Source of the DNA: Octopus vulgaris
Lineage: Eukaryota
Direction: 5' to 3'
Length of the DNA stretch: 64,000 nucleotides
Assembly: GCA_951406725.2 (NCBI GenBank)
Contig: OX597826.1
Span: forward strand, 29,698,001 to 29,762,000
Shown: in pieces, positions 22,684 to 47,275 of the stretch
Numbering within the stretch: position 1 is the first letter of the stretch
How the letters are laid out: every line of letters starts with the position of its first letter
Notes under the pieces: model-generated
Told to the model about the DNA's origin: nothing
What the model saw: the letters and a program-made list of their open reading frames with translations, nothing else
Databases searched by the model: none
Made by a program: the position numbers and the translations under genes

Positions 22684-23268
22684 GGCGGCGAGCTGGAAGA
22701 AACGTTAGCAGGCCGGGCGAAATGCGTAGCCGTATTTCGTCTGCCATTACGTTCTGAGTTCAAATTCCGCCAAGGTCCACTTTGCCTTTCATCCTTTCGG
22801 GGTCGATTAAATAAGTACCAGTTACGCACTGGGGTCGATATAATCGACTTAATCCGTTTGTCTGTCCTTGTTTGTCACCTCTGAGTTTAGCCCCTTGTGA
22901 GTAGTAAAGAAATAGGTATTTCGTCTGCCACTACGTTCTGAGTTCAAATTCCGCCGAGGTAGACTTTGCCTTTCATCCTTTCGGGGTCGATTAAATAAGT
23001 ACCAGTTACGCACTGGGGTCGATATAATCAACTTAATCCGTTTGTCTGTCCTTGTTTGTTCTCTCTGTGTTTAGCCCCTTGTGGGCAGTAAAGAAATAGG
23101 TATTTCATCTATCTTTACGTTCTGGGTCCAAATTCGCCGAGGTCGAGTTTGCATTTCATCCTTTCGGGCTCGATAAATTAAGTACCAGTTGCGTACTGCG
23201 GTAGATCTAATCGACTGGCCCCTCCTCCAAAATTTCGAACCTTAAGCCTAGAGTAGAAAAGGAATTAT
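22684..23268 (+). mobile_element. SINE family A trimer (two LINE-like tails plus one standard tail)
   Basis: 184-bp period. Junctions aaagaaata|ggtatttc at 22914/22915 and 23098/23099. Confidence 0.88.
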
Positions 23269-23774: not shown

Positions 23775-23997
23775 GGACGATGAGCTGGCAGAAACGTTGG
23801 CACGCTGGGCGAAATGCTTAGCGATATTTCGTCTGCCGTTACGTTCTGAGTTCAAATTCCACCGCGGTCGACTTTGCCTTTCATCCTTTCGGGGTTGATT
23901 GAATAAGTACCAGTTACGCACTGGGGTCTATATAATCGACTTAATCCCCTAGTTTGTCCTCTCTATGTTTATCCCCCTGTGGGTAATAAAGAAATAA
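23775..23997 (+). mobile_element. SINE family A with LINE-like tail
   Basis: Ends tttgtcctctctatgtttatccccctgtgggtaataaagaaata. Confidence 0.8.
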
Positions 23998-26453: not shown

Positions 26454-26800
26454 TCTTTATATATATAAAATTGAGAATGTGTGTCTGTCTGTGTGTTTCC
26501 CTAAAACTTGAGAACTACACAACCAATTCCATTCAAATTTTACACATGCCTTACTTAGAGTCCATGTAGTTTCATGGACAAAAAAATGTTCAACTTCTTG
26601 CCTAGAGCGAGCCCATAGCAATATCATATCTTCTCCACTATTTCAGTATTACGTGTTAAAAGTGAAACAAAAACGTTTCTCTATTTTGTCAGATACTTTC
26701 ATTTTAACAATAAAAATAATGATAACAATTGAATTATATATAGTAAGTAATAATTAAAATCAAACTAAAGTAACATGACAAAAGTAAAAATAGCAATTGG
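26454..26800 (+). mobile_element. Possible Helitron-like non-autonomous 5' end
   Basis: Starts TCtttatatatataaaa followed by a tgtctgtctgtg microsatellite, an architecture typical of such elements. Confidence 0.45.
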
Positions 26801-26849
26801 TATAAAATTGCATCAATGATTTGAACATGAATAAGTGGTTTCACATGAA

Positions 26850-26980
26850 TGGGAATAAATTAAAAATAAAATTAGCCTGCAGAAATGGAAGAGTCCAGAT
26901 GGATAATAAAAAATTAAATTAAAGAAAAAACTATTGTCTATAAAGTATAAAATGTAGAGAAAAAAGAAGATTCGAACACA
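26850..26980 (+). pseudogene. Left half of an old ORF1 relic interrupted by the array
   Basis: Translates KKTIVYKV*NVEKK..KIRT and aligns to ORF1 KRIIYKTYDTTTKMIQK. Confidence 0.6.
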
Positions 26981-28761
26981 CGGCGGAAATCAATTTGCGT
27001 GTTGTTATCTGTGATTAGACGTTGAAATTTTGTTGTGTAAAGTGATTAATATCGCGCGAGGCGTTTGCCTCCACGTTTGGAAACCTTCCGAAGAAGGTGA
27101 ATTGACCCTCTAGTCATGGCGACTTACGCGGGGGTCACGGGAAAGAATAATAATGATTCGGCAATAATCGTGAAGGATGTTTTCTTTGAGAAAAGTAAAA
27201 TCAAAGAATATGAAAAGCTATTCAAAAGGGAGGGTGATAGCGTGAAGCTAATCCCCCCGCGAAAGCAAAGGAGGACAAGGAAAACAAAACTGTAACGTAT
27301 AGAACCCAGGATAAAAGTACAAAGAAACTGGCAAGAGTGGAGATAGCAGAGATCGAAAAATGTCTGGGAGACATAATGGATAAATCGACCTACGTGAGTA
27401 GAGGAAAAAAATTTGGTACGGTGGAGGTGAGATGTGCAACGGAAGAAATTGCAGCCTCACTGGCTACCACTGTTCTAAGAGCGGAAACATTTATAATGTG
27501 GCCCTCATACAAGGGAAGAAGAGGGGTCCGGGTTAAAATTCCCGAATATACCCCCAGAAATAAAAACAGAATGGCTGGCAACAGCTATTCTAGGAGCAGC
27601 AGAAGAGGAAGTGGAGGTGGAATCCTTTAAGGAGTCCAACGCAGTAAATTGGAGAGGATATGGGGTAGAACTGTGTTTGATGGCCACAAAAGAGGACATT
27701 GAAAGCTTCCCCTATAGAATAGAAATCGAAGACGAGAAAACCCTCAGTGTAATTGTAGAGGGAAGAAAGCCAAACTGCTACTTGTGCGGGACAAGGGGGC
27801 ACATTAAAAAAGAGTGCCCGTTATATGAATTCATGGCGGAGTATGAGAAGGAAACTGAAGAAAAGAAGAATACGGTAAATGAAAAAGAAAACATAGAAAA
27901 GGAGACAAAACAACAAGAGAAAGGAAATAATAAGTCAACGAAGGAAAAAGAAATAAAAGAAAAGAAAGAAATAGAACCAAAACAGAGTCAGGAAAAGAAA
28001 AAGGAAAAAGAAACAACAGGAAAAAAACAAGAGAGAGAACAGAATCAAACGAAAAGAAAAGACGGCACACAAAAAGAAAAAGAAAAGGAACATAAAACAC
28101 GAGAGAAAGAGAGAACAGACAAAGAACCAAAAAGACAAGAGAAGGAAGAAGAAAGAAAAGAAGGCAAAAAGAGAGAAAGAGAGAAACAAAGAGAGGAGAA
28201 CAAGGAAGAAATAAGCCCGAAAAGAAAAACGAGAGAAAACGTAGGACGGAAACAAGATTACTACAAGTTAATAACCTTCCATTTCAGCCCCGAAATGAAG
28301 GAATTGACATGTAGTATGGAGGGACATGTGTGGGTCAACAGGATGACTGATCAGTGGCAGGAGACTGCTCTGATCCCCGAAGAAAGAGTCGCTGAGTTCC
28401 TCAGAGCAGCTGGAGAGAGTGTAATTTTTTACACGGGTGTTCGAGTGAAAGAGCGGCTGCCTGAGGGCTCAGTGATTGACTTTAGAGACTTGAAAAGTAT
28501 TATGGAATACGTGTGAGATTGTGAGAGGAGAGAGAAGAAAGAAGAGAAAAAGAAAAAAAAATTGTGAACTATATGTGACGAAAATGTAACCTCTCGATTC
28601 CGGGGATCGAGTGGGCATTTGCATCTCATTGTAAATATTCTTTCATTTGTCATTTTTATTTTTATTTTTTCCTTTTCTTGTCATTTCGCTTTCTTATTTT
28701 AAGTTCCCCGATTGTATTGTCCCCTCTATGTTCGCCCCTTGTGGGTAGTAATAAAATCAAA
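26981..28761 (+). mobile_element. ORF1-only non-autonomous retroelement S1
   Basis: 1781 bp. Shares termini with the L units and has no EN or RT. Confidence 0.9.
27116..28516 (+). CDS. S1 ORF1 (RRM-like region, CCHC zinc knuckle, K/E-rich tract, C-terminal domain); frameshifted
   Basis: MATYAGVTGK start and CYLCGTRGHIKKEC knuckle. Colinear with L ORF1. Two frameshifts. Confidence 0.8.
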
Positions 28762-30539
28762 CGGCGGAAATCAATTTGCGTGTTGTTATCTGTGATTAGA
28801 CGTTGAAATTTTGTTGTGTAAAGTGATTAATATCGCGCGAGGCGTTTGCCTCCACCTGTGGAAACCTTCCGAAGAAGGTGAATTGACCCTCTAGTCATGG
28901 CGACTTACGCGGGGGTCACGGGAAAGAAAAATAATGATTCGGCAATAATCGTGAAGGATGTTTTCTTTGAGAAGAGTAAACTCAAAGAATATGAAAAGCT
29001 ATTCAAAAGGGAGGGTGATAGCGTGAAGCTAATCCCCCCGCGAAAGCAAAAGAGGACAAAGAAAACAAGACTGTAACGTATAGAACCCAGGACAAAAGTA
29101 CAAAGAAACTGGCAAGAGTGGAGATAGCAGAGATCGAAAAATGTCTGGGAGACATAATGGATAAATCGACCTACGTGAGTAGAGGAAAAAATTTGGTACG
29201 GTGGAGGTGAGATGTGCAACGGAAGAAATTGCAGCCTCACTGGCTACCACTGTTCTAAGAGCGGAAACATTTATAATGTGGCCCTCATACAAGGGAAGAA
29301 GAGGGGTCCGGGTTAAAATCCCGAATATACCCCCAGAAGTAAAAACAGAATGGCTGGCAACAGCTATTCTAGGAGCAGCAGAAGAGGAAGTGGAGGTGGA
29401 ATCCTTTAAGGAGTCCAACGCAGTAAATTGGAGAGGATATGGGGTAGAACTGTGTTTGATGGCCACAAAAGAGGACATTGAAAGGTTCCCCTATAGAATA
29501 GAAATCGAAGACGAGAAAACCCTCAGTGTAATTGTAGAGGGAAGAAAGCCAAACTGCTACTTGTGCAGGACAAGGGGGCACATTAAAAAAGAGTGCCCGT
29601 TATATGAATTCATGGCGGAGTATGAGAAGGAAAATGAAGAAAAGAAGAATACGGTAAATGAAAAAGAAAACATAGAAAAGGAGACAAAACAACAAGAGAA
29701 AGGAAATAATAAGTCAATGAAGGAAAAAGAAATAAAAGAAAAGAAAGAAATAGAACCAAAACAGAGTCAGGAAAAGAAAAAGGAAAAAGAAACAACAGGA
29801 AAAAAACAAGAGAGAGAACAGAATCAAACGAAAAGAAAAGACGGCACACAAAAAGAAAAAGAAAAGGAACATAAAACACGAGAGAAAGAGAGAACAGACA
29901 AAGAACCAAAAAGACAAGAGAAGGAAGAAGAAAGAAAAGAAGGCAAAAAGAGAGAAAGAGAGAAACAAAGAGAGGAGAACAAGGAAGAAATAAGCCCGAA
30001 AAGAAAAACGAGAGAAAACGTAGGACGGAAACAAGATTACTACAAGTTAATAACCTTCCATTTCAGCCCCGAAATGAAGGAATTGACATGTAGTACGGAG
30101 GGACATGTGTGGGTCAACAGGATGACTGATCAGTGGCAGGAGACTGCTCTGATCCCCGAAGAAAGAGTCGCTGAGTTCCTCAGAGCAGCTGGAGAGAGTG
30201 TAATTTTTTACACGGGTGTTCGAGTGAAAGAGCGGCTGCCTGAGGGCTCAGTGATTGACTTTAGAGACTTGAAAATTATGGAATACGTGTGAGATTGTGA
30301 GAGGAGAGAGAAGAAAGAAGAGAAAAAAGAAAAAAAAAATTGTGAACTATATGTGACGAAAATGTAACCTCTCGATTCCGGGGATCGAGTGGGCATTTGC
30401 ATCTCATTGTAAATATTCTTTCATTTGTCATTTTTATTTTTATTTTTTCCTTTTCTTGTCATTTCGCTTTCTTATTTTAAGTTCCCCGATTGTATTGTCC
30501 CCTCTATGTTCGCCCCTTGTGGGTAGTAATAAAATCACA
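28762..30539 (+). mobile_element. ORF1-only element S2 (ORF1 28897-30292, frameshifted)
   Basis: Near-identical to S1. The 363-aa ORF 29201-30292 is open. Confidence 0.9.
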
Positions 30540-30766
30540 CGGCGGAAATCAATTTATTGCGTTATTAGTAAGTTGATATATATTTTTGCTCTCATACTAC
30601 TTATCTTTGTTATTATATACTGTTGGTCTACCTTTTTTTGTCCATTGTTGTCTAACGGACGAAGTCAACCTTCGCGCGAAGACTTCGCGTTGGTGTTCCC
30701 CCCTCAGTGGGGGAAAACTACAATCAATTTAGATTACCAAAGGCTTGTTAAAGCCATTTGTTCAAA

Positions 30767-31803
30767 ATGGAGTCCCCCATCACTTATTCGCCCGTGACGA
30801 GCGAGGAGGAATACCCGGCGTTGTCGCCAAGTAAAAAAGAGGCGTTGTCGCCAAGAAAAAAAGAGGCGCTGTCGCCGAAGAAAAAGAGGCGGCGTCGCCC
30901 AAGAAAATGGTAAAACCAGTACCAGCATCAACTCCAGCAAAAAAATTCGCTGAAGTGGCTGGGAAGAAAATTAAAAAAATTAACGTGGACAACCTGGGAA
31001 AACATGCAGACTGTGTGTCAAAAGAGGGCACAGAAGTAACCGTGGCTTCAAACGCCAAAATACAGGAGGATATTTCGAATAGGAGAATAATCTATAAGAC
31101 ATTCAGTATAACAAACAGAGCAATCCAAAAAATAGAGGAGAAAAAGATTGAAAACTGCTTAAAGCCAATAATGGACAAAATTACGTATATCAATCGAGGG
31201 AAGAAATACGGCACAGTGGAGGTGAGATTCACGTCAGAGGAGGTAGCGAAGAAGCTATCCATGGAACCCATAAAAGCAGAGGATATTGTTCTCCTACCCC
31301 TGTATAAAGGCAAGAGAACTTCCAAAATCACTATGAACAACATCCCGCCAGAAGCGGATGCCGAAGTCCCTAGTGGCAGCAGTTATGGTAGGCCTGGAGG
31401 AAAAAATAAACATCCTCCAGGCCACCGTAGAAGAAGAAGAATTCTGGAAAGGGCAAAAGATAATAATAGCCATACAAGCAGAAGTACAAACCCTGGAAGA
31501 GATCCCAGAGACTCTTAGGATAAGCGAAGATGAAAGAGTCACAGTCTTCGTAGAGGGCAGAAAGCCGAGGTGCTTCGGCTGCGGTAAGAAGGGGCATGTA
31601 AGGGCGGAATGCCAGCCCCAACCCAAACCGCAGGAAGCACCTAAGCCAAAAGGAAAAGAAGACAATGTGTCATCAGAAGCAGCGTCAGACGGCCCAGATG
31701 GGAAGACTGAAGGTGTGGAGGTGATGATAACAGCAGAACCAGCGGCGGAGGAAAAAAAGAGCGAAGAAAAGATAAATGAGGAGGGGTGGGCAAAAATTAT
31801 CGG

Positions 31804-31839
<36 letters not shown>

Positions 31840-32165
31840 CGGAAACCACCCCTCCCAGAGTAATTTTAAAAAAGAAAAAAGAGTCAATAAACTCATATAT
31901 GGCCGTAAAAGCATCAAATAGCAGACTCGGAAACGTGTTGGCTGCCATGGCCAATGTGAAGAGAGTAGAGAAAAAAAATGACTTTGCAATTTACAAAATA
32001 GACCGGAAGGATTACGGGCGGATAAAGTCAGATTTCTTCCATGACGTAGGCCCACTTAGGTTGGATGTAACATCTCCACATATATTCGAGGGCCTACGTC
32101 AGACTCCCCCACGAGGCCCAGAAAAAGAGAAGGAAGAAGAAGAAAAAACCGAACCACTGATATAA
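30767..32165 (+). CDS. L-a ORF1 (SPxK repeats, RRM-like region, zinc knuckle CFGCGKKGHVRAEC); frameshifted
   Basis: Pieced from ATG 30767 and ORFs 30907, 31358 and 31776. Confirmed by comparison with L-b. Confidence 0.8.
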
Positions 32166-32174
32166 AGGTAAGTA

Positions 32175-35100
32175 ATGGATTACATTTATGTTGGTTGTTT
32201 AAATGTGCGCGGCCTGGGAGCAGGCTGGAAGCAAGGTCGCTTCCTGCATGATATCAGGTCGCGTAATTTAGATGTTATTGTTGCTACAGAAACCCGGCTA
32301 GAGGGGCCAAGAGGTCTACTCCCGCTGTTTGACGGCTACGAGAGTTTTTTCTCTCCTGGCAGTCCTACAGGCGGGAGTGGGGTGTTGGTCCTATTAAAAA
32401 GAAACCGGGTTTCTGAGAAAAAGTTAATTTTTGCAGATCCAGAAGGTAGGCTGGTCGTCATGGATTTGACGTTCAGTAATGGTAAAGTTATCAGACTGGT
32501 TGCAATTTACGCACCCAACCATACAGGGCAAAGTGATTATTTTCGTGAACTAGAAAACTTTCTTGGTACTTCGCATTCATTAGTGGTGCTAGGAGACTTT
32601 AACACAATTTGCAAAGCGGATGTAGATTATGTTGGCTCGTGTCCAGATAGAAAAGGCAACAGTGGCTTCATGGAACTGCTAAGCCGCTTTGAGCTAGCAG
32701 ATCCTTATAGGCTGGAATTTCCGAACGCTCCATTGTGGACATGGTCAAACAGCGACGGATCTTCCAGGTCGTATCTAGATAGAATACTAATTAGAAAAGT
32801 AGACAGTAAAATAGCTAAGTGTCCACAGTTTTACCCGATCAGCTACAGTGATCATAAAATGGTCACTTGTAAGCTTGACATAGATAAGGTTAAAAATAGA
32901 GGATCCGGTTACTGGAAACTTAATACGTCCCTTTTGGCGATTAAGGAGTACAAAGACCGGATTAGGAATATAATTCAGAGGGCACTATCTGGTACCATCA
33001 TTAATAACAAATGGTGGTACGCCCTCAAACGAGCCATCAAGTTTGAGTCTATTAGATATAGCATAGGAGTAGTGGCTAGAGAGGCTAGAAGGGAAACTAC
33101 TCTAGTTAAGGAATTAGAGGAAGCCATGAAAACTGGCTCTGCGGCTCAGGTGGCGGCCAAGAGACTGGTGTTAAACCAGCACCTCGAGGCCAAACACATG
33201 GGCTGCATTGTCAGGGCTAGAATCCGTCATATGGGATGTGAAGGAATCAACGCCGTGAGATGGGCCCGAGTGGTGGAAGCTCAGCATGGTAACGATGCCA
33301 CGATTCGATCTTTGACGAACCAACAAGGTGAGTTGATAAACGAACCCGAGGAGATGTGTGAGGCCTTTCAGGAGCACTTCGCTCAGCTTTTCGGTGAGTG
33401 CGGCGGACTGGATAGGAGGAGGGCCTTTACGGACCTACTCGACGGTCTGCCGCGCTTATCGGGGCGAGATGCGGAGGGCTGTGAAGGGCCAATCACGCCT
33501 GAGGAGGTGGTTGAGGCAATGGCGGACTGCGGCGCGGGCAAGGCGCCGGGTTTGGATGGTCTACCCTATGAGTTATATAAGAGTATGCCAGACTTGTTCG
33601 GGCACCTACTGGCGGAGGTCTACGCGAACTGGCAGCAGAACGGGCTTATACCCAGATCTGTGCGCCGGGGAGTAGTGACTCTCGTCAGAAAGGACCCGAG
33701 CAAGGGGGAGTGCATTGATAATTTCAGGCCCATCACTCTGCTAAACACAGAGTTGAAGATTTTGGCCAAAGTGTTATCGAAAAGATTGGCGCGTGTCGCG
33801 GATGGTCTGATCGGAGGGGCACAGACATGTGCCGTTCCGGGCAGATCCATTCAGGATAATCTCCATCTAATGCGGTACACTATAGAGGGGTTTAATAGTG
33901 ATTCTGGCAAGGGTGGGGCACTGGTCCATTTAGACCAATCTAAAGCTTTTGATAGGGTCGACCATCGTTACCTGGTATCTGCCCTGGCACAGTTCGGGCT
34001 GAGCCTTGGATTCCTCAGGTGGATTATCGAAATTTATGATAACATCGACTCGGTAGTTCGGGTGAACGGCTTCTTGTCGAAGCCGTTCAAAATCAAACGC
34101 TCGGTTCGTCAAGGGTGTCCGCTCTCCCCGCTTTTGTACGTGATGGCTCTTGAGCCATTACTGCGAAAACTGAGCGGCATCCCGAGACAGCCAGGTAATG
34201 GAAAATCAGTGTCAGCGTACGCGGATGACATCACCATCATCGTAACCGAAATGGACCACCTATGTAAAGTAGGCAAGGCCATAGAGGTGTACGAGACGGT
34301 GACAGGAGCAAAAGTTAATCGCGAAAAGTCAGTCGGCTTGCAACTCGGCACCTGGAGAGGCAAGTCGATGCCTCCTGACAGCGTCGTGGGACGTTGGACG
34401 GAGGGTCCGATTAAACTGCTAGGGGTCTGGTTCGGTCCAGACCTCCAAATAGAGAAGAATTGGGGCGAGGTAACGAGCAAGGTGGCTGCAGTAGCCAAGA
34501 CCTGGTCTTGGCGGTGGCTATCCCTGAAAGGGAGGGCGGAGGTGGCCAATGTGTTTATCGCATCGGTTATCACCTACCGCCTTTCCGTCGTTCCTTGCCC
34601 TGATTCGTGGTTGATCAAGTTGGAAAGACAGCTCTTCTACTTCTTGTGGAAGGGCGGGAAACCACTTGTGAAACGCTCTACTTGCTGTCAACAACCGTTA
34701 AAGGGTGGGCTAGGGATGCCTTGGCTGATGATGCGCAGACATGCGCTGAGGTTAAGACATCTGTGGCTCTACCTGGATGGTGAACGGGTGTGGTCTTCGC
34801 TAGCAAAACTGATGTTTCCCAAGTTCACTAGTTTCGGTGGATGGGAAACCTGGCTGAATCGTAGATCGAAACTTGGTACTTGGTACACGGAGTGTCGCAA
34901 GGCTCTCCTGCTATTCCGTCGCTCGGGCAACGCCTGCGGTGGGGGTTCCACCACTTTCTTCTATAGAGGGTTGGTAGAGGCGGAATGTGAAGATACCTTG
35001 GGGGAAACCCTAGGTCTCGACGATAATCAGCTGGCCAGTCTGTTCCGACGTACGTTCGAGCCAAGGACACTGGACAACTTCCAGAAGTCTCTGGCATGGC

Positions 35101-35570
35101 AATGCTACAGAGGAGCTCTACCTGTTCGGGATAAACTCGCAAGGCACGGTGGCCAAGACAGTCCGATATGTCCAAGATGCGGGCGGGATAGGGAAACCGT
35201 CCCGCACGCGATTGTTCATTGTCCGGACGTGTCTGAGGTGTGGGTTTATGCCGAACACCTGTTGTCAGGTACACGAAGAGTACAGCTGTCGACTGAGTCG
35301 ATTACAAAAATTGACCCACCGGATTTCCTCGTGAATGAAGGTAAGTTTCGTTTTCTCGTTGTAGTAGCAATCGCGAAAGAGGTGATATGGAAGACGAGAA
35401 TGAAAGGTTTACAGTCAGGCAAGTTCATCTCCGGCCCTGGTTTGATGAATTATTTCATCTTTCACCTGAAAAGGAAGATAGGGCTGGAGAGAATATGCCT
35501 GACTAGGAGAGCGTATGAAGAACGATGGAAGGATGTAGCACGGAAGTTGCGAATGAAAGTTACAACATAA
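32175..35570 (+). CDS. L-a ORF2: APE endonuclease, reverse transcriptase and C-terminal CCHC, 1131 aa, intact
   Basis: LNVRG, GDFN and SDH (APE); GYWKLN; FRPITLLN, KAFDRV, RQGCPLSP and YADD (RT); CPRC..ETVPHAIVHC. Confidence 0.95.
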   Translation: MDYIYVGCLNVRGLGAGWKQGRFLHDIRSRNLDVIVATETRLEGPRGLLPLFDGYESFFSPGSPTGGSGVLVLLKRNRVSEKKLIFADPEGRLVVMDLTFSNGKVIRLVAIYAPNHTGQSDYFRELENFLGTSHSLVVLGDFNTICKADVDYVGSCPDRKGNSGFMELLSRFELADPYRLEFPNAPLWTWSNSDGSSRSYLDRILIRKVDSKIAKCPQFYPISYSDHKMVTCKLDIDKVKNRGSGYWKLNTSLLAIKEYKDRIRNIIQRALSGTIINNKWWYALKRAIKFESIRYSIGVVAREARRETTLVKELEEAMKTGSAAQVAAKRLVLNQHLEAKHMGCIVRARIRHMGCEGINAVRWARVVEAQHGNDATIRSLTNQQGELINEPEEMCEAFQEHFAQLFGECGGLDRRRAFTDLLDGLPRLSGRDAEGCEGPITPEEVVEAMADCGAGKAPGLDGLPYELYKSMPDLFGHLLAEVYANWQQNGLIPRSVRRGVVTLVRKDPSKGECIDNFRPITLLNTELKILAKVLSKRLARVADGLIGGAQTCAVPGRSIQDNLHLMRYTIEGFNSDSGKGGALVHLDQSKAFDRVDHRYLVSALAQFGLSLGFLRWIIEIYDNIDSVVRVNGFLSKPFKIKRSVRQGCPLSPLLYVMALEPLLRKLSGIPRQPGNGKSVSAYADDITIIVTEMDHLCKVGKAIEVYETVTGAKVNREKSVGLQLGTWRGKSMPPDSVVGRWTEGPIKLLGVWFGPDLQIEKNWGEVTSKVAAVAKTWSWRWLSLKGRAEVANVFIASVITYRLSVVPCPDSWLIKLERQLFYFLWKGGKPLVKRSTCCQQPLKGGLGMPWLMMRRHALRLRHLWLYLDGERVWSSLAKLMFPKFTSFGGWETWLNRRSKLGTWYTECRKALLLFRRSGNACGGGSTTFFYRGLVEAECEDTLGETLGLDDNQLASLFRRTFEPRTLDNFQKSLAWQCYRGALPVRDKLARHGGQDSPICPRCGRDRETVPHAIVHCPDVSEVWVYAEHLLSGTRRVQLSTESITKIDPPDFLVNEGKFRFLVVVAIAKEVIWKTRMKGLQSGKFISGPGLMNYFIFHLKRKIGLERICLTRRAYEERWKDVARKLRMKVTT

Positions 35571-35819
35571 ATGTAATACCAAGTGCAACCAAAAGTATCA
35601 GTGGGGAGGCGGGGCTCGTGGGGTCCGAGCTAAACCCGCACCCACTCCACCCGTAATGTCTTCCGGTCTGTCCTATCACTCGATTTTTGTCCATTTATTG
35701 TTATTCATGAAAATTTTTAAACCCGATTTATTGTAAAAACCCATTCGTTTGTCTGACCCCATCATCAGAATGTATTGTCCCATCTGTGTTCGCCCCTTGT
35801 GGGTAATAATAAAACAACA

Positions 35820-37595
35820 CGGCGGAAATCAATTTGCGTGTTGTTATCTGTGATTAGAAGTTGAAATTTTGTTGTGTAAAGTGATTAATATCGCGCGAGG
35901 CGTTTGCCTCCACCTGTGGAAACCTTCCGAAGAAGGTGAATTGACCCTCTAGTCATGGCGACTTACGCGGGGGTCACGGGAAAGAAAAATAATGATTCGT
36001 CGATAATCGTGAAGGATGTTTTCTTTGAGAAAAGTAAACTCAAAGAATATGAAAAGCTATTCAAAAGGGAGGGTGATAGCGTGAAGCTAATCCCCCCGCG
36101 AAAGCAAAAGAGGACAAAGAAAACAAGACTGTAACGTATAGAACCCAGGACAAAAGTACAAAGAAACTGGCAAGAGTGGAGATAGCAGAGATCGAAAAAT
36201 GTCTGGGAGACATAATGGATAAATCGACCTACGTGAGTAGAGGCAAAAATTTGGTACGGTGGAGGTGAGATGTGCAACGGAAGAAATTGCAGCCTCACTG
36301 GCTACCACTGTTCTAAGAGCGGAAACATTTATAATGTGGCCCTCATACAAGGGAAGAAGAGGGGTCCGGGTTAAAATCCCGAATATACCCCCAGAAGTAA
36401 AAACAGAATGGCTGGCAACAGCTATTCTAGGAGCAGCAGAAGAGGAAGTGGAGGTGGAATCCTTTAAGGAGTCCAACGCAGTAAATTGGAGAGGATATGG
36501 GGTAGAACTGTGTTTGATGGCCACAAAAGAGGACATTGAAAGGTTCCCCTATAGAATAGAAATCGAAGACGAGAAAACCCTCAGTGTAATTGTAGAGGGA
36601 AGAAAGCCAAACTGCTACTTGTGCGGGACAAGGGGGCACATTAAAAAAGAGTGCCCGTTATACGAATTCGTAGCGGAGTGCGAGCAGGAACTCGAAAAGA
36701 AGAATACGGTAAATGAAAAAGAAAACATAGAAAAGGAAACAAAACAACAAGAGAAAGGAAATAATAAGTCAATGAAGGAAAAAGAAATAAAAGAAAAGAA
36801 AGAAATAGAACCAAAACAGAGTCAGGAAAAGAAAAAGGAAAAAGAAACAACAGGAAAAAAACAAGAGAGAGATCAGAATCAAACGAAAAGAAAAGACGGC
36901 ACACAAAAGAAAAAGAAAAGGAACATAAAACACGAGAGAAAGAGAGAACAGACAAAGAACCAAAAGACAAGAGAAGGAAGGAGAAAGAAAAGAAGGCAAA
37001 AAGAGAGAAAGAGAGAAACAAAGAGAGGAGAACAAGGAAGAAATAAGCCCGAAAAGAAAAACGAGAGAAAACGTAGGACGGAAACAAGATTACTACAAGT
37101 TAATAACCTTCCATTTCAGCCCCGAAATGAAGGAATTGACATGTAGTACGGAGGGACATGTGTGGGTCAACAGGATGACTGATCAGTGGCAGGAGACTGC
37201 TCTGATCCCCGAAGAAAGAGTCGCTGAGTTCCTCAGAGCAGCTGGAGAGAGTGTAATTTTTTACACGGGTGTTCGAATGAAAGAGCGGCTGCCTGAGGGC
37301 TCAGTGATTGACTTTAGAGACTTGAAAGGTATTATGGAATACGTGTGAGATTGTGAGAGGAGAGAGAAGAAAGAAGAAAAAAAAGAAAAAAAAAATTGTG
37401 AACTATATGTGACGAAAATGTAACCTCTCGATTCCGGGGATCGAGTGGGCATTTGCATCTCATTGTAAATATTCTTTCATTTGTCATTTTTACTTTTTAT
37501 TTTTTCCCTTCTTGTCATTTCGCTTTCTTATTTTAAGTTCCCCGATTGTATTGTCCCCTCTATGTTCGCCCCTTGTGGGTAGTAATAAAATCACA
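35820..37595 (+). mobile_element. ORF1-only element S3 (ORF1 35955-37348, frameshifted)
   Basis: Homologous to S1 and S2. Confidence 0.9.
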
Positions 37596-39376
37596 CGGCG
37601 GAAATCTATTTGCGTGTTGTTATCTGTGATTAGACGTTGAAATTTTGTTGTGTAAAGTGATTAATATCGCGCGAGGCGTTTGCCTCCACGTGTGGCAACC
37701 TTCCGAAGAAGGTGAATTGACCCTCTAGTCATGGCGACTTACGCGGGGGTCACGGGAAAGAAAAATAATGATTCGTCGATAATCGTGAAGGATGTTTTCT
37801 TTGAGAAAAGTAAACTCAAAGAATATGAAAAACTATTCAAAAGGGAGGGTGATAGCGTGAAGCTAATCCCCCCGCGAAAGCAAAAGAGGACAAAGAAAAC
37901 AAGACTGTAACATATAGAACCCAAGACAAAAATACAAAGAAACTGGCAAGAGTGGAGATAGCCGAAATCGAAAAATGTCTGGGAGACATAATGGGGAAAT
38001 CGACCTACGTGAGTAGAGGCAAGAAATTTGGTACGGTGGAGGTGAGATGTGCAACGGAAGAAATTGCAGCCTCACTGGCTACCACTGTACTAAGAGCGGA
38101 AACATTTATAATGTGGCCCTCATACAAGGGAAGAAGAGGGGTCCGGGTTAAAATCCCGAATATACCCCCAGAAGTAAAAACAGAATGGCTGGCAACAGCT
38201 ATTCTAGGAGCAGCAGAAGAGGAAGTGGAGGTGGAATCCTTTAAGGAGTCCAACGCAGATAAACTGGAGAGGATATGGGGTAGAACTGTGTTTGATGGCC
38301 ACAAAAGAGGACATTGAAAGGTTCCCCTACAGAATAGAAATTGAAGATGAGAAAACCCTCAGTGTAATTGTAGAGGGAAGAAAGCCAAACTGCTACTTGT
38401 GCGGGACAAGGGGGCACATTAAAAAAGAGTGCCCGTTATACGAATTCGTAGCGGAGTGCGAGCAGGAACTCGAAAAGAAGAATACGGTAAATGAAAAAGA
38501 AAACATAGAAAAGGAAACAAAACAACAAGAGAAAGGAAATAATAAGTCAATGAAGGAAAAAGAAATAAAAGAAAAGAAAGAAATAGAACCAAAACAGAGT
38601 CAGGAAAAGAAAAAGGAAAAAGAAACAACAGGAAAAAAACAAGAGAGAGATCAGAACCAAACGAAAAGAAAAGACGGCACACAAAAAGAAAAAGAAAAGG
38701 AACATAAAACACGAGAGAAAGAGAGAACAGACAAAGAACCAAAAAGACAAGAGAAGGAAGGAGAAAGAAAAGAAGGCAAAAAGAGAGAAAGAGAGAAACA
38801 AAGAGAGGAGAACAAGGAAGAAATAAGCCCGAAAAGAAAAACGAGGAAAACGTAGGACGGAAACAAGATCACGGCTTCTACAAGTTAGTAACCTTCCATT
38901 TCTGCCCTGAAATGAAAGAATTGACAAGTAGTACGGAGGGACATATATGGGTCAACAGGATGACCGATCAGTGGCAGGAGACTGCTCTAATCCCCGAAGA
39001 AAGAGTCGCTGAGTTCCTCAGAGCTGCCGGAGAGAGTGTAACGTTTTACACGAGTGTTCGAGTGAGAGAGCGGCTGCCTGAGGGCTCAGTGATTGACTTT
39101 AGAGAATTGAAAACTATTATGGAATACGTATAGAATTGTGAAAAGAGAGAGAAGAAAGAAGAGAAAAAAGAAAATATTGTGAACTATATGTGACGAAAAT
39201 GTAACCTCTCGATTCCGGGGATCGAGTGGGCATTTACATCTCATTGTAAATATTCTTTCATATGTCATTTTTTACTTTTATTTTTTCCTTTTCTTGTCAT
39301 TTGCTTTCTTATTTTAAGTTCCCCGATTGTATTGTCTCCTCTATGTTCGCCCCTTGTGGGTAATAATAAAATCACA
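37596..39376 (+). mobile_element. ORF1-only element S4 (ORF1 37731-39133, frameshifted)
   Basis: Homologous, with a variant 3' portion. Confidence 0.9.
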
Positions 39377-41139
39377 CGTCGGAAATCTATTTGCGTGTTG
39401 TTATCTGTGACTAGACAGTGAAATTTTGTTGTGTAAATTGATTATTATCGCGCGAGGCGTTTGCCTCCACGTGTGGAAACCTTCCGAAGAAGGTGAATTG
39501 ACCCTCTAGTCATGGCGACTTACGCGGGGGTCACGGGAAAGAAAAATAATGATTCGTCGATAATCGTGAAGGATGTTTTCTTTGAGAAGAGTAAACTCAA
39601 AGAATATGAAAAGCTATTCAAAAGGGTGGGTGATAGCGTGAAGCAAAAGAGGACAAAGAAAACAAGACTGTAACATATAGAACACAAGACAAAAATACAA
39701 AGAAACTGGCAAGAGTGGAGATAGCAGAAATCGAAAAATGTCTGGGAGACATAATGGGGAAATCGACCTACGTGAGTAGAGGCAAAAATTTGGTACGGTG
39801 GAGGTGAGATGTGCAACGGAAGAAATTGCAGCCTCACTGGCTACCACTGTACTAAGAGCGGAAACATTTATAATGTGGCCCTCATACAAGGGAAGAAGAG
39901 GGGTCCGGGTTAAAATCCCGAATATACCCCCAGAAGTAAAAACAGAATGGCTGGCAACAGCTATTCTAGGAGCAGCAGAAGAGGAAGTGGAGGTGGAATC
40001 CTTTAAGGAGTCCAACGCGATAAACTGGAGAGGATATGGGGTAGAACTGTGTTTGATGGCCACAAAAGAGGACATTGAAAGGTTCCCCTACAGAATAGAA
40101 ATTGAAGATGAGAAAACCCTCAGTGTAATTGTAGAGGGAAGAAAGCCAAACTGCTACTTGTGCGGGACAAGGGGGCACATTAAAAAAGAGTGCCCGTTAT
40201 ACGAATTCGTAGCGGAGTGCGAGCAGGAACTCGAAGAAAAGAAGAATACGGTAAATGAAAAAGAAAACATAGAAAAGGAAACAAAACAACAAGAGAAAGG
40301 AAATAATAAGTCAATGAAGGAAAAAGAAATAAAAGAAAAGAAAGAAATAGAACCAAAACAGAGTCAGGAAAAAAAAAGGAAAAAGAAACAACAGGAAAAA
40401 AACAAGAGAGAGATCAGAATCAAACGAAAAGAAAAGACGGCACACAAAAAGAAAAAGAAAAGGAACATAAAACACGAGAGAAAGAGAGAACAGACAAAGA
40501 ACCAAAAAGACAAGAGAAGGAAGGAGAAAGAAAAGAAGGCAAAAAGAGAGAAAGAGAGAAACAAAGAGAGGAGAACAAGGAAGAAATAAGCCCGAAAAGA
40601 AAAATGAAGGAAAACGTAGGACGGAAACAAGATTACTGCTTCTACAAGTTAGTAACCTTCCATTTCTGCCCTGAAATGAAGGATTTGACAAGTAATACGG
40701 AGGGACATGTGTGGGTCAACAGGATGACCGATCAGTGGCAGGAGACTGCTCTAATCCCCGAAGAAAGAGTCGCTGAGTTCCTCAGAGCTGCCGGTGAGAG
40801 TGTAACATTTTACACGAGTGTTCGAGTGAGAGAGCGGCTGCCTGAGGGCTCAGTGATAGACTTTAGAGAATTGAAAACTATCATGGAATATGTATAGAAT
40901 TGTGAGAAGAGAGAGAAGAAAGAAGAGAAAAAGAAAATATTGTGAAATATATGTGACGAAAATGTAACCTCTCGATTCCGGGGATCGAGTGGGCATTTAC
41001 ATCTCATTGTAAATATTCTTTCATATGTCATTTTTTACTTTTATTTTTTCCTTTTCTTGTCATTCGCTTTCTTATTTTAAGTTCCCCGATTGTATTGTCC
41101 CCTCTATGTTCGCCCCTTGTGGGTAATAATAAAATCACA
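39377..41139 (+). mobile_element. ORF1-only element S5 (ORF1 39512-40897, frameshifted, 18-nt deletion)
   Basis: Homologous. Lacks taatccccccgcgaaagc. Confidence 0.9.
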
Positions 41140-41363
41140 CGTCGGAAATCAATTTTTTGCGTTTATTAGTAAGTTGATATATTTTTGCTCTCGTACTATT
41201 ATCTCTGTTATTATATACTGTTGGTCTACCTGTTTTGTCTATTGTTGTCTAACTGACGAAGTCAGCCTTCGCGCGAGACTTCGCGTTGGTGTTCCCCCCT
41301 CCGTGGGGGAAAACTACAATTAATTTGGATTTACCAAAGGCTTGTTAAAGCCATTTGTTCAAG

Positions 41364-42741
41364 ATGGAGTCCCCCATCTCTTATTCGCCCGTGACGAGCG
41401 AGGATGAATACCCGGCGTTGTCGCCAAGAAAAAAGAGGCGTTGTCGCCAAGAAAAAAAGAGGCGTTGTCGCCGAAGAAAAAAGAGGCGGCGTCGCCCAAG
41501 AAAATGGAAAAACCAGTACCAGCATCAACTCCAGCGAAAAAATTCGCTGAAGTGGCTGGGAAAAAGATTAAAAAAATAAATATAGAAAATTTGGAAAAAT
41601 TTGCAGACTGTGTAAAAAAAGAGGGCACAGAAGTGACTGTGGCCACAAACATACAAAAACATGACGATATAGAAAAAAAAAGAATAATATATAAAACTTA
41701 CGACACAACGACAAAAATGATCCAAAAAATCGAAGAAAAAAAAATAGAGTTTTGTCTAAAACCTTTTATGGATAAAATAACGTATATAAACAGAGGAAAA
41801 AGATACGGCACAGTGGAGGTGCGTTTTACTACGGAGGAGATAGCGAAAAAACTATCGATGGAGCCGATCAAAACAGAAAACATTGTCTTACTACCATTGT
41901 ATAAAGGAAAAAGGACGTCGAAAATTTCAATGAACAACATACCGCCAGAGGCAGATGCAGAATGTCTGGTGGCAGCAGTGATGGTAGGCCTGGAGGAAAA
42001 AATAAACATCCTCCAGGCCACAGTGGAGGAAGAGGAGTTTTGGAAAGGGCAGAAAATAGTGATAGCCATTCAGGCGGAGGTGCAAACACTGGAAGAAATT
42101 CCAGAAACGGTAAAGATTAGTGAAGACGAGAAAATAACAGTTTTCGTGGAGGGCAGGAAGCCGAGGTGCTTCGGCTGCGGCAAGAAGGGTCATGTAAGGG
42201 CGGAATGCCAACCCCAACCCAAACCGCAGGAAGCACCTAAGCCAAGAGAAAAAGAAGATAATGTGTCACCAGAAGCAGCGTCGGACGGCCCAGAAGGGAA
42301 GACTGAAGGTGTGGAGGTGACGGTGACAGCAGAACCAGCGGCGGAGGAAAAAAAGAGCGAGGAAAAGATAAATGAGGAGGGGTGGGCAAAAATTACCGGA
42401 AAAAAAAAAGAAAAACGGAAACCACCCCTCCCAGAGTAATTTTAAAAAAGAAAAGAGAGTCAATGAACTCGTATATGGCCGTAAAGGCAGCAAATAGCAG
42501 ACTCGGAAACGTGTTGGCAGCCATGGCCAAAGTGGAGAAAGTAGTGAAAAAAAACGACTTTGTAATTTACAGAATAGGCCGGAAGGATTACGGGCGGATA
42601 AAGTCAGAATTCTTCCATGACGTAGGCCCACTTAGATTGGATGTGACATCTCCACATATATTCGAGGGCCTACGTCAGACTCCCCCACGAGGCCCAGAAA
42701 AAGAGTTAGAAGAACAAGAGAAAACCGAACCACTGATATAA
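41364..42741 (+). CDS. L-b ORF1; frameshifted in A-runs
   Basis: MESPISYSP start, 332-aa ORF 41441-42439 and C-terminal ORF 42382-42741. Confidence 0.82.
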
Positions 42742-42750
42742 AGGTAAGTA

Positions 42751-45700
42751 ATGGATTACATTTATGTTGGTTGTTTGAATGTGCGCGGCCTGGGAGCAGG
42801 CTGGAAGCAAGGTCGCTTCCTGCATGATATCAGGTCGCGTAATTTAGATGTTATTGTTGCTACAGAAACCCGGTTAGAGGGGCCAAGAGGTCTACTCCCG
42901 CTGTTTGACGGCTACGAGAGTTTTTTCTCTCCTGGCAGTCCTACAGGCGGGAGTGGGGTGTTGGTCCTATTAAAAAGAAACCGGGTTTCTGAGAAAAAGT
43001 TAATTTTTGCAGATCCAGAAGGTAGGCTGGTCGTCATGGATTTGACGTTCAGTAATGGTAAAGTTATCAGACTGGTTGCAATTTACGCACCCAACCATAC
43101 AGGGCAAAGTGATTATTTTCGTGAACTAGAAAACTTTCTTGGTACTTCGCATTCATTAGTGGTGCTAGGAGACTTTAATACAATTTGCAAAGCGGATGTA
43201 GATTGTGTTGGCTCGCGTCCAGATAGAAAAGGCAACAGTGGCTTCATGGAACTGCTAAGCCGCTTTGAGCTAGCAGATCCTTATAGGCTGGAATTTCCGA
43301 ACGCTCCATTGTGGACATGGTCAAACAGCGACGGATCTTCCAGGTCATATTTAGATAAAATACTAATTAGAAAAGTAGACAGTAAAATAGCTAAGTGTCC
43401 ACAGTTTTACCCGATCAGCTACAGTGATCATAAAATGGTCACTTGTAAGCTTGACATAGATAAGGTTAAAAATAGAGGATCCGGTTACTGGAAACTTAAT
43501 ACGTCCCTTTTGGCGATTAAGGAGTACAAAGACCGGATTAGGAATATAATTCAGAGGGCACTATCTGGTACCATCATTAATAACAAATGGTGGTACGCCC
43601 TCAAACGAGCCATCAAGTTTGAGTCTATTAGATATAGCATAGGAGTAGTGGCTAGAGAGGCTAGAAGGGAAACTACTCTAGTTAAGGAATTAGAGGAAGC
43701 CATGAAAACTGGCTCTGCGGCTCAGGTGGCGTCCAAGAGACTGGTGTTAAACCAGCACCTCGAGGCCAAACACATGGGCTGCATTGTCAGGGCTAGAATC
43801 CGTCATATGGGATGTGAAGGAATCAACGCCGTGAGATGGGCCCGAGTGGTGGAAGCTCAGCATGGTAACGATGCCACGATTCGATCTTTGACGAACCAAC
43901 AAGGTGAGTTGATAAACGAACCCGAGGAGATGTGTGAGGCCTTTCAGGAGCACTTCGCTCAGCTTTTCGGTGAGTGCGGCGGACTGGATAGGAGGAGGGC
44001 CTTTACGGACCTACTCGACGGGCTGCCGCGCTTATCGGGGCGAGATGCGGAGGGCTGTGAAGGGCCAATCACGCCTGAGGAGGTGGTTGAGGCAATGGCG
44101 GACTGCGGCGCGGGCAAGGCGCCGGGTTTGGATGGTCTACCCTATGAGTTATATAAGAGTATGCCAGACTTGTTCGGGCACCTACTGGCGGAGGTCTATG
44201 CGAACTGGCAGCAGAACGGGCTTATACCCAGATCTGTGCGCCGGGGAGTAGTGACTCTCGTCAGAAAGGACCCGAGCAAGGGGAGTGCATTGATAATTTC
44301 AGGCCCATCACTCTGCTAAACACAGAGTTGAAGATTTTGGCCAAAGTGTTATCGAAAAGATTGGCGCGTGTCGCGGATGGTCTGATCGGAGAGGCACAGA
44401 CATGTGCCGTTCCGGGCAGATCCATTCAGGATAATCTCCATCTAATGCGGTACACTATAGAGGGGTTTAATAGTGATTCTGGCAAGGGTGGGGCACTGGT
44501 CCATTTAGACCAATCTAAAGCTTTTGATAGGGTCGACCATCGTTACCTGGTATCTGCCCTGGCACAGTTCGGGCTGAGCCTTGGCTTCCTCAGGTGGATT
44601 ATCCAAATTTATGATAACATCGACTCGGTAGTTCGGGTGAACGGCTTCTTGTCGAAGCCGTTCAAAATCAAACGCTCGGTTCGTCAAGGGTGTCCGCTCT
44701 CCCCGCTTTTGTACGTGATGGCTCTTGAGCCATTACTGCGAAAACTGAGCGGCATCCCGAGACAGCCAGGTAATGGAAAATCAGTGTCAGCGTACGCGGA
44801 TGACATCACCATCATCGTAACCGAAATGGACCACCTATGTAAAGTAGGCAAGGCCATAGAGGTTTACGAGACGGTGACAGGAGCAAAAGTTAATCGCGAA
44901 AAGTCAGTCGGCTTGCAACTCGGCACCTGGAGAGGCAAGTCGATGCCTCCTGACAGCGTCGTGGGACGTTGGACGGAGGGTCCGATTAAACTGCTAGGGG
45001 TCTGGTTCGGTCCAGACCTCCAAATAGAGAAGAATTGGGGCGAGGTAACGAGCAAGGTGGCTGCAGTAGCCAAGACCTGGTCTTGGCGGTGGCTATCCCT
45101 GAAAGGGAGGGCGGAGGTGGCCAATGTGTTTATCGCATCGGTTATCACCTACCGCCTTTCCGTCGTTCCTTGCCCTGATTCGTGGTTGATCAAGTTGGAA
45201 AGACAGCTCTTCTACTTCTTGTGGAAGGGCGGGAAACCACTTGTGAAACGCTCTACTTGCTGTCAACAACCGTTAAAGGGTGGGCTAGGGATGCCTTGGC
45301 TGATGATGCGCAGACATGCGCTGAGGTTAAGACATCTGTGGCTCTACCTGGATGGTGAACGGGTGTGGTCTTCGCTAGCAAAACTGATGTTTCCCAAGTT
45401 CACTAGTTTCGGTGGATGGGAAACCTGGCTGAATCGTAGATCGAAACTTGGTACTTGGTACACGGAGTGTCGCAAGGCTCTCCTGCTATTCCGTCGCTCG
45501 GGCAACGCCTGCGGTGGGGGTTCCACCACATTCTTCTATAGAGGGTTGGTAGAGGCGGAATGTGAAGATACCTTGGGGGAAACCCTAGGTCTCGACGATA
45601 ATCAGCTGGCCAGTCTGTTCCGACGTACGTTCAAGCCGAGGACACTGGACAACTTCCAGAAGTCTCTGGCATGGCAATGCTACAGAGGAGCTCTACCTGT

Positions 45701-46143
45701 TCGGGATAAACTCGCAAGGCACGGTGGCCAAGACAGTCCGATATGTCCAAGATGGGGGGGATAGGGAAACCGTCCCGCACGCTATTGTTCATTGTCCGGA
45801 CGTGTCTGAGGTGTGGGTTTATGCCGAACAGCTGTTGTCAGGTACACGAAGAGTACAGCTGTCGACTGAGTCAATTACAAAAATTGACCCACCGGATTTC
45901 CTCGTGAATGAAGGTAAGTTTCGTTTTCTCGTTGTAGTAGCAATTGCGAAAGAGGTGATATGGAAGACGAGAATGAAAGGTTTACAGTCAGGCAAGTTCA
46001 TCTCCGGCCCTGGTTTGATGAATTATTTCATCTTTCACCTGAAAAGGAAGATAGGGCTGGAGAGAATATGCCTGACTAGGAGAGTGTATGAAGAACGATG
46101 GAAGGATGTAGCACGAAAGTTGCGAGTGAAAGATACAACATAA
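42751..46143 (+). CDS. L-b ORF2 (EN-RT-CCHC), split by two frameshifts in G-runs
   Basis: ORFs 42751-44319, 44328-45764 and 45724-46143 are almost identical to L-a ORF2. Confidence 0.9.
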
Positions 46144-46390
46144 ATGTAATACCAAGCGCAACCAAAAGTATCAGTGGGGAGGCGGGGCTCGTGGGGTCCG
46201 AGCTAAACCCGCACCCACTCCACCCGTAATGTCTTCCGGTCTGTCCCATCATTCGATTTCTGTCCATTTATTGTAATTCATGAAAATTTTTAAATTCGAT
46301 TTATTGTAAAAACCCATTCGTGTGTCTGACCCCATCATCAGATTGTATTGTCCCATCTATGTAGCCCCTAGTGGGTAATAATAAAACAAC

Positions 46391-46690
46391 ATGGAGGAAA
46401 GCACCTTCGAAAAGTGTCTTGGTGCGACTATCAGAGGCGGTAAATTCGCCACAATAGAAGCAAGGTTCGAGTCAACGGAGCGTGCAAGGGAGTACTCGAT
46501 TCGAACTTGCAAAGTGGAAATATTTTATTTTTACCTTTATATCTGGGACGTAGGATGTCCCGGAAAAAAATTTTAAATGCCCCCCCCCAGAAGTAGAGGT
46601 AGGCTGGATTGTAGCCACACTTCTATACAAGAGGGAGGACAAGATACAATTGATCGAAATTACAAGAGATGGGCTAACGATTCCAGTCTG
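46391..46690 (+). pseudogene. Right half of the old ORF1 relic
   Basis: MEESTFEKCLG..RGGKFATIEARF..LPLYLGRR..NAPPEVEVGWIVATLL aligns to S and L ORF1. Confidence 0.75.
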
Positions 46691-47275
46691 TTATATATTT
46701 TGAGTATTGTTATCACTAGTGATATCAAGATATAACTTTGTATTTTGTATTTTATGTGTAGATGTATATATATAGATGTACACACATATATATACACATA
46801 TATACATGCACTAGCACTATGACCCGGCAACGACGGGTCTTTAATGCTAGTATATATATATATATATATATGAGAATGTGCATATGTACATGGGGTGGGT
46901 ATAGTTGGGCGGTTAAGAAACTCGGTTTGCAAACGTGTGGTTTTAGGATCAGGCCTCTGTGTAGCACCTTGGGCAAGAGTCTCCTACTGTAGCCCCGGGT
47001 TGACCAGTGTCTTGAGAGTGAATTGGTGGAGGAAAACTGTATGGAAACCTGTTGTGTGTGTGTGTATGTATGTGTGTATTTATGTGTGTGTGTGAGCGTA
47101 TTTGTGTGTGTGTATTTATGTGTGTGTGTGTGCGCATGCGCGTGAGTGTATATATGTGCGAGTGTGCGCGTGGTGTATATGTGTGCGTGTGTCTTTTTTT
47201 CACCGATTGACAAGTGGTGTTGGTTTGTTTACGTCTCCGTAACTTATAAGTTCAACAATGGAAAGCGATAGAATA

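Follow-up and report, generated by a model that had tools for sequence, protein, structure and literature searches.

Mixed head-to-tail arrays of an L1-group LINE and its ORF1-only partners at a fixed site inside a Helitron of Octopus vulgaris

Here we have analysed a 64,000-nucleotide stretch of the Octopus vulgaris genome (assembly GCA_951406725.2, contig OX597826.1, forward-strand positions 29,698,001 to 29,762,000; hereafter the window) that holds a tandem array of two kinds of retrotransposon: L, a long interspersed nuclear element (LINE) with two open reading frames (ORF1 and ORF2), and S, which carries ORF1 alone. Seven abutting units lie on one strand in the order S,S,L,S,S,S,L, confirming the arrangement given by a first-pass annotation made from the sequence alone, with boundaries now placed at 26978-46388. 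That annotation treated the array as free-standing and missed that it fills a site inside a copy of a non-autonomous Helitron, here called Helitron T, which spans 26454-46850 with the array inside it (Table 1). We consider it likely that the ORF2 of L drives the insertion of both L and S at this Helitron site, rebuilding the site on the 5' side each time and stacking units from oldest at the 3' end to newest at the 5' end.

The S units of the window, all of the family S1, measure 1763-1781 bp and differ pairwise by 0.9-4.4%; the two L units (5280 and 5252 bp) are 4.4% apart. Common to S and L are a 47-nt 3' tail (89-91% identity), 17-19 nt at the 5' end and an ORF1 nucleotide patch of 61-77 nt at 70-74%, and the protein-level homology of their ORF1s that had been proposed is borne out by tblastx (32% over 170 aa, E 4e-46). 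As assembled, ORF1 is frameshifted in 5 of 5 S units and 2 of 2 L units, as is ORF2 of the last L. The absence of 5' truncation noted in the first pass is true of this array, and truncated copies do occur at other loci. The first S1 unit, the most derived S1 of the array, opens with a recopied junction of ~16 nt, and the final ~60 nt of the left Helitron part consist of a decayed ORF1-like fragment.

Table 1. Helitron T and the seven array units within it, in window coordinates.
Feature	Position	Strand	Remarks
Helitron T, left part	26454-26977	+	5' TC after A; stops at insertion site
S1 unit 1, ORF1-only	26978-28758	+	ATG 27116, stop 28516; frameshifted in assembly
S1 unit 2	28759-30536	+	ORF1 ATG 28897, stop 30292; frameshifted in assembly
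L unit, young subfamily	30537-35816	+	ORF1 30767-32165, frameshifted in assembly; ORF2 32175-35570, intact
ORF2 of first L, 1131 aa	32175-35570	+	APE endonuclease, reverse transcriptase (YADD), zf-RVT; catalytic motifs present
S1 unit 4	35817-37592	+	ORF1 ATG 35955
S1 unit 5	37593-39373	+	ORF1 ATG 37731
S1 unit 6	39374-41136	+	least derived S1 of the array
L unit, older subfamily, 3'-most	41137-46388	+	ORF1 41364-42741, ORF2 from 42751; both frameshifted in assembly
Helitron T, right part	46389-46850	+	target sequence, remainder of captured ORF1-like fragment, 19-bp hairpin 46821-46839, CTAG end then T

L is an L1-group retrotransposon of the type without long terminal repeats. The ORF2 of the first L contains the Pfam domains Exo_endo_phos, RVT_1 and zf-RVT, and its best match among solved structures is human L1 ORF2p (E 7e-65, versus 5e-26 for R2). 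The nearest named matches come from Argonauta hians (65%) and turtles (36-42%), with a fungal 'Transposon TX1' at 26% and no labelled Tx1 reference among them; a Type I ORF1, with an RNA recognition motif (RRM) plus a CCHC knuckle, is consistent with Tx1 in non-mammalian animals (PMC5203782). An exact L motif occurs in at least 113 copies. A full ORF2 is present in 9 of 37 L units, and the ratio of nonsynonymous to synonymous change (dN/dS) is 0.13 for ORF1 and 0.23 for ORF2.

Genome-wide, we found 298 exact matches to the tail motif and many mixed unit orders, by which the possibility of a single-locus segmental duplication or misassembly, raised in the first pass, is rejected. The orders seen include L, LL, SL, SSSSS, SSLL, two L preceded by eight S, and one L preceded by 22 S. 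The last of these is a 44-kb array at C7 ~100.087-100.131 Mb (L211-L215, L231) that runs from the left part of the Helitron through 22 S1 and one L to its right part, with a junction motif that drifts stepwise along the array. The first 100 listed tail matches fall into 64 clusters, of which we examined 57 (93 of the 100 tails); with the window this makes 58 loci. Helitron T lies on at least one side in 45 of them, 4 lie in another repeat, and 9 are elsewhere or unplaced. By our estimate Helitron T makes up <0.1% of the genome, and its share of the loci exceeds the >20% of flanks in one sequence by which the available text of PMC4494074 recognises target preference. Specifically, the last exact tail adjoins one fixed site in 34 of the 58 loci and a second site in 5, to which extension added 6. 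The first-pass view that both elements insert at the junction motif stands insofar as both use the same site at many loci; the target itself is a fixed Helitron site. A telomeric location of the arrays is ruled out, as the loci are spread along contigs of 50-226 Mb.

Helitrons are marked by a 5' TC, a 3' CTRR, insertion between A and T, and a 16-20-bp hairpin 10-12 bp from the 3' end (available text of PMC3288121). Helitron T, ~1.03-1.06 kb long with copies ~5% apart, begins with TC preceded by A at 27 of 28 5' ends and ends in CTAG followed by T at 36 of 41 3' ends (50 loci), and carries a 19-bp palindrome that stops 11 nt before the 3' end; it is a non-autonomous Helitron. Within it lies a captured, decayed ORF1-like fragment of ~118 codons, 26-31% identical to the ORF1s of the family (best E 1e-9 in a 4-sequence database), and the S/L insertion site falls inside this fragment. 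Exact empty sites number at least 928. In a deletion subfamily of T (131 matches, with 18 of 20 inspected copies empty), a second cut site lies as far from the upstream flank as the main site does, that flank being the same in both; every site-B array seen with an intact left end belongs to this subfamily. The A allele of the site is over-represented among first insertions (24 of 30, versus 30 of the 100 first-listed empty sites, counted by hand; p=1.5e-6), which may reflect either enzyme preference or Helitron subfamily age. Helitron T also occurs in tandem copies, often with its 5' end duplicated (L037, L045, L137). Besides T, a second host repeat is seen at L084, L103, L117 and L133 (and L145), one site of which is used by an L subfamily with an S-type tail; the family S4 is apparently at a neighbouring position of that repeat, a possible target switch.

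How the site is re-created is recorded in the junctions, which we compared across the 72 units whose left and right junctions are both at the main site. Wherever the right junction has a rare base at position 3, the left one has it too (21 of 21 units, background 13%), and the same holds for position 4 (10 of 10, background 0%); for first insertions, the corresponding figures are 6 of 6 at C-allele sites versus 1 of 24. Furthermore, one truncated copy and several off-target ones show target-site duplications (TSDs) of 16-17 nt. Most of the motif between units is such a duplication. Of the shared termini described in the first pass, the 47-nt tail therefore stands, and the 5' motif proves to be largely recopied target; the junction comparison rules it out as a family-wide 5' end, its CGGCGG form being confined to the window array among the 72 junctions. 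At junction positions 6-15, replacement by variant sequence is common, and the same variants turn up in as many as 5 unrelated arrays, in S and L alike, and the off-target copies L115 and C31 carry 4-9 nt of Helitron-like flank plus junction after their TSD. We infer that the element RNA starts just upstream of the cut and carries the junction of its donor. Co-transposed S-L dimers are not favoured as the main route, because at the four loci that are informative (L074, L080, L085, L090) the S-L junctions have the target allele of their own locus.

S is no isolated family. At least six ORF1-only families (S1-S6, including a further family, S5) have unit lengths of 1.65-1.96 kb and end in a tail of the shared type; an exact S1 motif alone has at least 98 copies. 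The intact S1 ORF1 is 467 aa long, and intact ORF1s of S1, S2, S3, S4 and S6 span 442-493 aa. On variants shared between arrays, S1 ORF1 has a dN/dS of 0.15 overall and 0.08 in the RRM-CCHC core; the value is 0.15 before a common frameshift, and 0.05-0.20 between intact copies and between families. By these ratios, S ORF1 is under purifying selection and functional, in agreement with the earlier proposal that S supplies its own ORF1. The core is predicted to comprise two RRMs plus a CCHC knuckle: the modelled S1 ORF1 (mean pLDDT 59, core 70-87) matches tandem RRMs (best E 7.5e-6, with low TM-scores), and the CCHC motif is invariant in 12 ORF1s. In the ORF1 tree, three groups receive support: S1, S2 and S6 together with an O. 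bimaculoides protein; S3 with S4; and L with a second autonomous LINE, L2. Synonymous sites are near or at saturation between ORF1 families, and the S1 and L ORF1s are 26% identical, so the S lineages are old and did not arise by recent deletion of L; they are likely older than the spread of Helitron T.

Several further observations concern these relatives. A second guild, made up of the ORF1-only S3, S4 and S6 and the autonomous L2, occupies the same Helitron T (L141-L153, L069, L074, L089, L096, L097, L105, L113, L121, L123, L125). The ORF2 of L2 has ~77% nucleotide identity to that of L, and L2 carries the shared tail. The left junction of this guild is nearly always at T position ~526, ~12 nt upstream, its 3' ends vary, and it is mostly placed 5' of S1, S2 and L. 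Older S-like ORF1-only copies, nearest to the O. bimaculoides protein, are found at L181-L185, L189, L190, L193 and L195 (L224-L230); they mostly have an S-type 3' untranslated region, lie mostly off the Helitron site and may show the ancestral target. Public databases list fragments of S ORF1 (P0043, P0044, P0047-P0049) among the host proteins of O. vulgaris, and the named protein matches with 97-100% identity carry the label Octopus vulgaris.

Target-primed reverse transcription and recognition of the RNA tail are established LINE biology. On this basis, ORF2 of L would nick the site at GAAC^AC[A/C]TGG and prime reverse transcription from it, recognising S or L RNA through the shared 47-nt tail, and a second nick ~16 nt downstream would duplicate the site. 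S would borrow the endonuclease and reverse transcriptase of L; that S is mobilised in trans by L is suggested by their common 47-nt tail, cut site and TSD pattern. Only the leftmost junction would keep the upstream flank, so that the next element lands there, giving the array its polarity. The element RNA would begin a few bases upstream in the flank, with the donor junction partly overwriting the local copy. S ORF1 may be kept because it packages its own RNA in cis, and local tandem duplication would add units in long S-only runs.

The age order of units supports the stacking direction. The S1 tree is ladder-shaped, and arrays interleave on it in positional order. Judged by tree depth, 51 pairs of the discovery set have the more derived unit on the 5' side and 4 show the reverse, with 4 ties (p=5e-5). 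A tree-free measure, the count of shared derived alleles, gives 52 versus 7 pairs in the discovery set and 27 versus 7 in the held-out set (p=0.009); by array, newer units are 5' in 15 of 17 (p=0.002). Within the window, the derived-allele counts of the S1 units fall from 84 through 73, 68 and 38 to 32 from 5' to 3', and the long C7 array agrees with the age order (tau -0.45, p=0.004). Arrays are usually age-ordered, oldest 3' and newest 5', and by its 3'-most position the older-subfamily L of the window was probably the first coloniser of its array.

Several results weigh against our interpretation. In the held-out set (18 loci), tree depth gave only 24 versus 19 pairs (p=0.34), with reversals mostly among near-contemporary tip copies, and the tree-free measure was devised after that result. 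The held-out array H254 runs the opposite way (74, 88, 87, 84), and for L alone the polarity is weak (3 versus 0 by ORF2, 2 versus 2 by the 5' part). In arrays with several S1 units, 24 of 59 units (C7 not included) have their closest relative within the array itself, and the 22-S array at C7 contains many near-identical units, especially in the middle. Sites without a Helitron flank also stack (L115, C31), so the Helitron flank is not strictly required, and L2, which shares the tail, could mobilise S. Finally, a frameshifting C6 run is present in 43 of 60 S1 copies, because of which a programmed -1 frameshift in S1 ORF1 was considered; homopolymer error or slippage is more likely, since the frame is kept in runs of 7, 10 and 13, and the length of the run varies between near-identical neighbours.

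Could the arrays instead have grown mainly by local tandem duplication, through unequal crossing-over after one or two insertions? Besides the 24 units just mentioned, units 5-15 at C7 differ by 0-0.6% from a neighbour within that array, and in H248 the derived-allele counts are almost equal in 7 of 8 units. However, the other 35 of the 59 S1 units are nearest to a unit elsewhere (unit 6 of the window, for example, is 0.17% from a copy on another contig, C1, versus 1.7% from its array neighbour), arrays mix families that are 26-63% alike in protein, and the positional interleaving on one ladder-shaped tree likewise speaks against it. Some stacking is local duplication, which lengthens long S-only runs; that it was the main process is contradicted by the units whose nearest neighbour lies in another array, and we hold this improbable. 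Another route to similar arrays is the spread of Helitron-plus-array composites by the Helitron itself. Helitrons do carry cargo, but 98 L pairs <1% apart sit in flanking Helitrons that are a median of 5.4% and a minimum of 2.2% apart (32 loci with L on a bare site), L divergence is uncorrelated with flanking-Helitron divergence (rho 0.05, 496 pairs), and occupied Helitrons are 5.5% apart versus 5.2% among empty ones. Because close L pairs lie in divergent Helitrons without overall correlation, such hitchhiking is ruled out. As for assembly artefacts, homopolymer indels are indeed frequent, but the order of units varies from locus to locus and tracks an age gradient, which misassembly would not produce, and 20 public runs from 9 studies, one of which may be the source sample, contain about half of the sampled S-S words; composites or artefacts as the origin of the arrays are thus extremely unlikely. 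No RNA data set was among the runs listed, which is neutral as to expression.

If insertion of L and S at the Helitron site is accepted, it remains to be asked which enzyme moves S and what brings S to its sites. A different LINE, either L2 or an unseen parent with an S-type ORF1, might mobilise S in place of L: L2 uses the same Helitron besides sharing the tail, and the search for a parent spanned only 30 loci. But S1 and S2 use exactly the cut position and junction pattern of L, the families associated with L2 leave the different left junction described above, and a non-exhaustive search of the 1.5 kb around 30 S-type ORF1 matches turned up no ORF2 endonuclease, nor thus an autonomous parent among these loci; we give mobilisation by another LINE little credence. 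With regard to sites, L and S differ strongly. Among the 93 tails, those of L adjoin bare Helitron in 36 cases and another unit in 11, versus 3 and 30 for S (p=1e-9), the remaining 13 being elsewhere or unclassified. When each S1 run is counted once, the 98 S1 motifs reduce to 39 loci, which start on a bare site (11), in front of another family (26, of which 6 are placed by spacing to an L motif only) or off target (2). S1 is on occupied sites far above a rough estimate of 17% occupied, or a generous 30%, and L is not. L mostly colonises empty sites and S mostly lands before existing units, a follower bias compatible with ORF1/Gag-directed targeting as in HeT-A/TART. Perhaps S piles onto occupied sites simply since these loci are open or transcribed, with no recognition by S RNA or ORF1, which would leave the insertion mechanism unchanged. 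No sequence feature has been demonstrated as required, and S1 did colonise bare sites at 11 of 39 loci, so we regard this as a real possibility, though not the one we favour: 26 of 37 S1 loci began on an occupied site, whereas L is on occupied sites in 11 of 47 cases, near the 17% estimate (p=0.24), and a general hot-locus effect should act on both.

Two other repeats in the window may be mentioned here. An abundant, often head-to-tail SINE-like (short interspersed element-like) repeat of ~185 bp, perhaps of tRNA origin, lies at 22732-23216, 23782-23996, 17551-17848 (-) and 18385-18687 (-); its 3' tail is nearly the same as that of L and S, so this LINE group may mobilise it, and Rfam gave no match to it. 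A mariner-type transposase fragment at 47519-48067 (-) (Pfam Transposase_1, E 4e-24) is unrelated to the array.

Beyond the insertion mechanism favoured here, the data allow a broader and more speculative proposal, which we think rather unlikely: a guild of three tiers, in which a Helitron, having captured a piece of the ORF1 of this very LINE family, multiplied it into about a thousand landing pads, L elements act as pioneers on the empty ones, and ancient ORF1-only followers are steered to the remodelled junction by an RNA leader or by their own ORF1, as with HeT-A Gag. If true, loss of ORF2 would be a general result of polar head-to-tail array life and not a peculiarity of telomeres, and every array could be read like a tape on which the succession of retrotransposons is recorded. 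Apart from this proposal, the position of units in the arrays provides a clock of subfamily succession at dozens of loci, and the pioneer/follower split, among elements likely sharing one enzyme, points to RNA or ORF1 as what selects the target. L itself, with intact copies, a fixed site and mostly full-length insertions, is a candidate site-specific LINE for biochemistry.

Each part of this system has a precedent, in Tx1-Mar/SINEU, HAL1 and HeT-A, and for the combination we found no published description in the literature searched; Repbase, Dfam or the O. vulgaris repeat library may hold the families. The repeat annotation of O. vulgaris reports 13 recently active L1-Tx1 families (PMC13282606), and as far as that source is available its main text is without the words 'target', 'nested' and 'ORF1' and one supplement without 'nested' and 'ORF1'; PMC12988792 makes no mention of Tx1 or Helitron. 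In the nearest known system, that of crocodilians, Tx1-Mar LINEs and their non-autonomous SINEU partners have a common target in a non-autonomous DNA transposon, Mariner-N4_AMi, with 5' extensions from the host transposon and hitchhiking likewise excluded, and tandem SINEU-3 copies that sandwich a 16-nt TSD arose via sequential insertion (available text of PMC4494074). Xenopus Tx1L in Tx1D and crocodilian Tx1-9_AMi in Harbinger are similarly L1/Tx1-group LINEs with a fixed site in a DNA transposon, and for these the same portion of PMC4494074 mentions no ORF1-only partner or long polar arrays. In contrast to Tx1-Mar/SINEU, the octopus host is a Helitron, and its site lies in an ORF1 fragment captured from the element family itself; the partners are protein-coding elements of 1.7-1.9 kb under selection instead of snRNA-headed SINEs, and the arrays, up to 23 units long, are age-ordered and composed of several families.

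For S itself, the obvious comparison is HAL1 of mammals. HAL1 is dispersed in genomes, whereas S is site-specific and array-building, with an ORF1 only 26% identical to that of its co-resident LINE. Like S, HAL1 is non-autonomous and encodes only ORF1p, and it arose several times (PMC5753468, available part). It derives from mammalian L1 with a Type II ORF1, whereas S, in octopus, appears to have a Type I ORF1 (RRM-RRM-CCHC) and is not HAL1 proper. Mixed tandem insertions are also known for trypanosome ingi and RIME in RHS genes. This pair, too, combines an autonomous LINE with a non-autonomous partner at a hot-spot of a multi-copy sequence (PMC7563717, available part). RIME, however, is non-coding, the clade is another, and the host is a gene family.

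The array logic is like that of the Drosophila telomere elements HeT-A, TART and TAHRE, whose arrays gain their newest units at the 5' end. Polar growth in head-to-tail, same-direction mixed arrays is found in octopus as well, though the held-out tree test was not significant. Indeed, the fly arrays also combine autonomous and ORF1-only elements with a conserved ORF1, and their ORF1-only lineages persist and give rise to new ORF1-only families (PMC5537684 and PMC13534243, available parts). The fly elements belong to the Jockey clade and sit at chromosome ends, whereas the octopus elements are L1-group and interstitial, are spread over many contigs, have TSDs of the endonuclease type and are not known to serve the host; they form a parallel to the fly arrays in the chromosome interior. 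ORF2 has been lost repeatedly in telomeric array-forming Jockey elements and apparently not in dispersed relatives (PMC13534243, available part); since octopus provides an independent, non-telomeric, L1-group case of polar arrays with long-lived ORF1-only lineages, it becomes testable whether array life itself favours the loss of ORF2. The octopus system is Tx1-Mar/SINEU-like in its targeting and HeT-A/TART-like in its array logic, and it belongs to neither.

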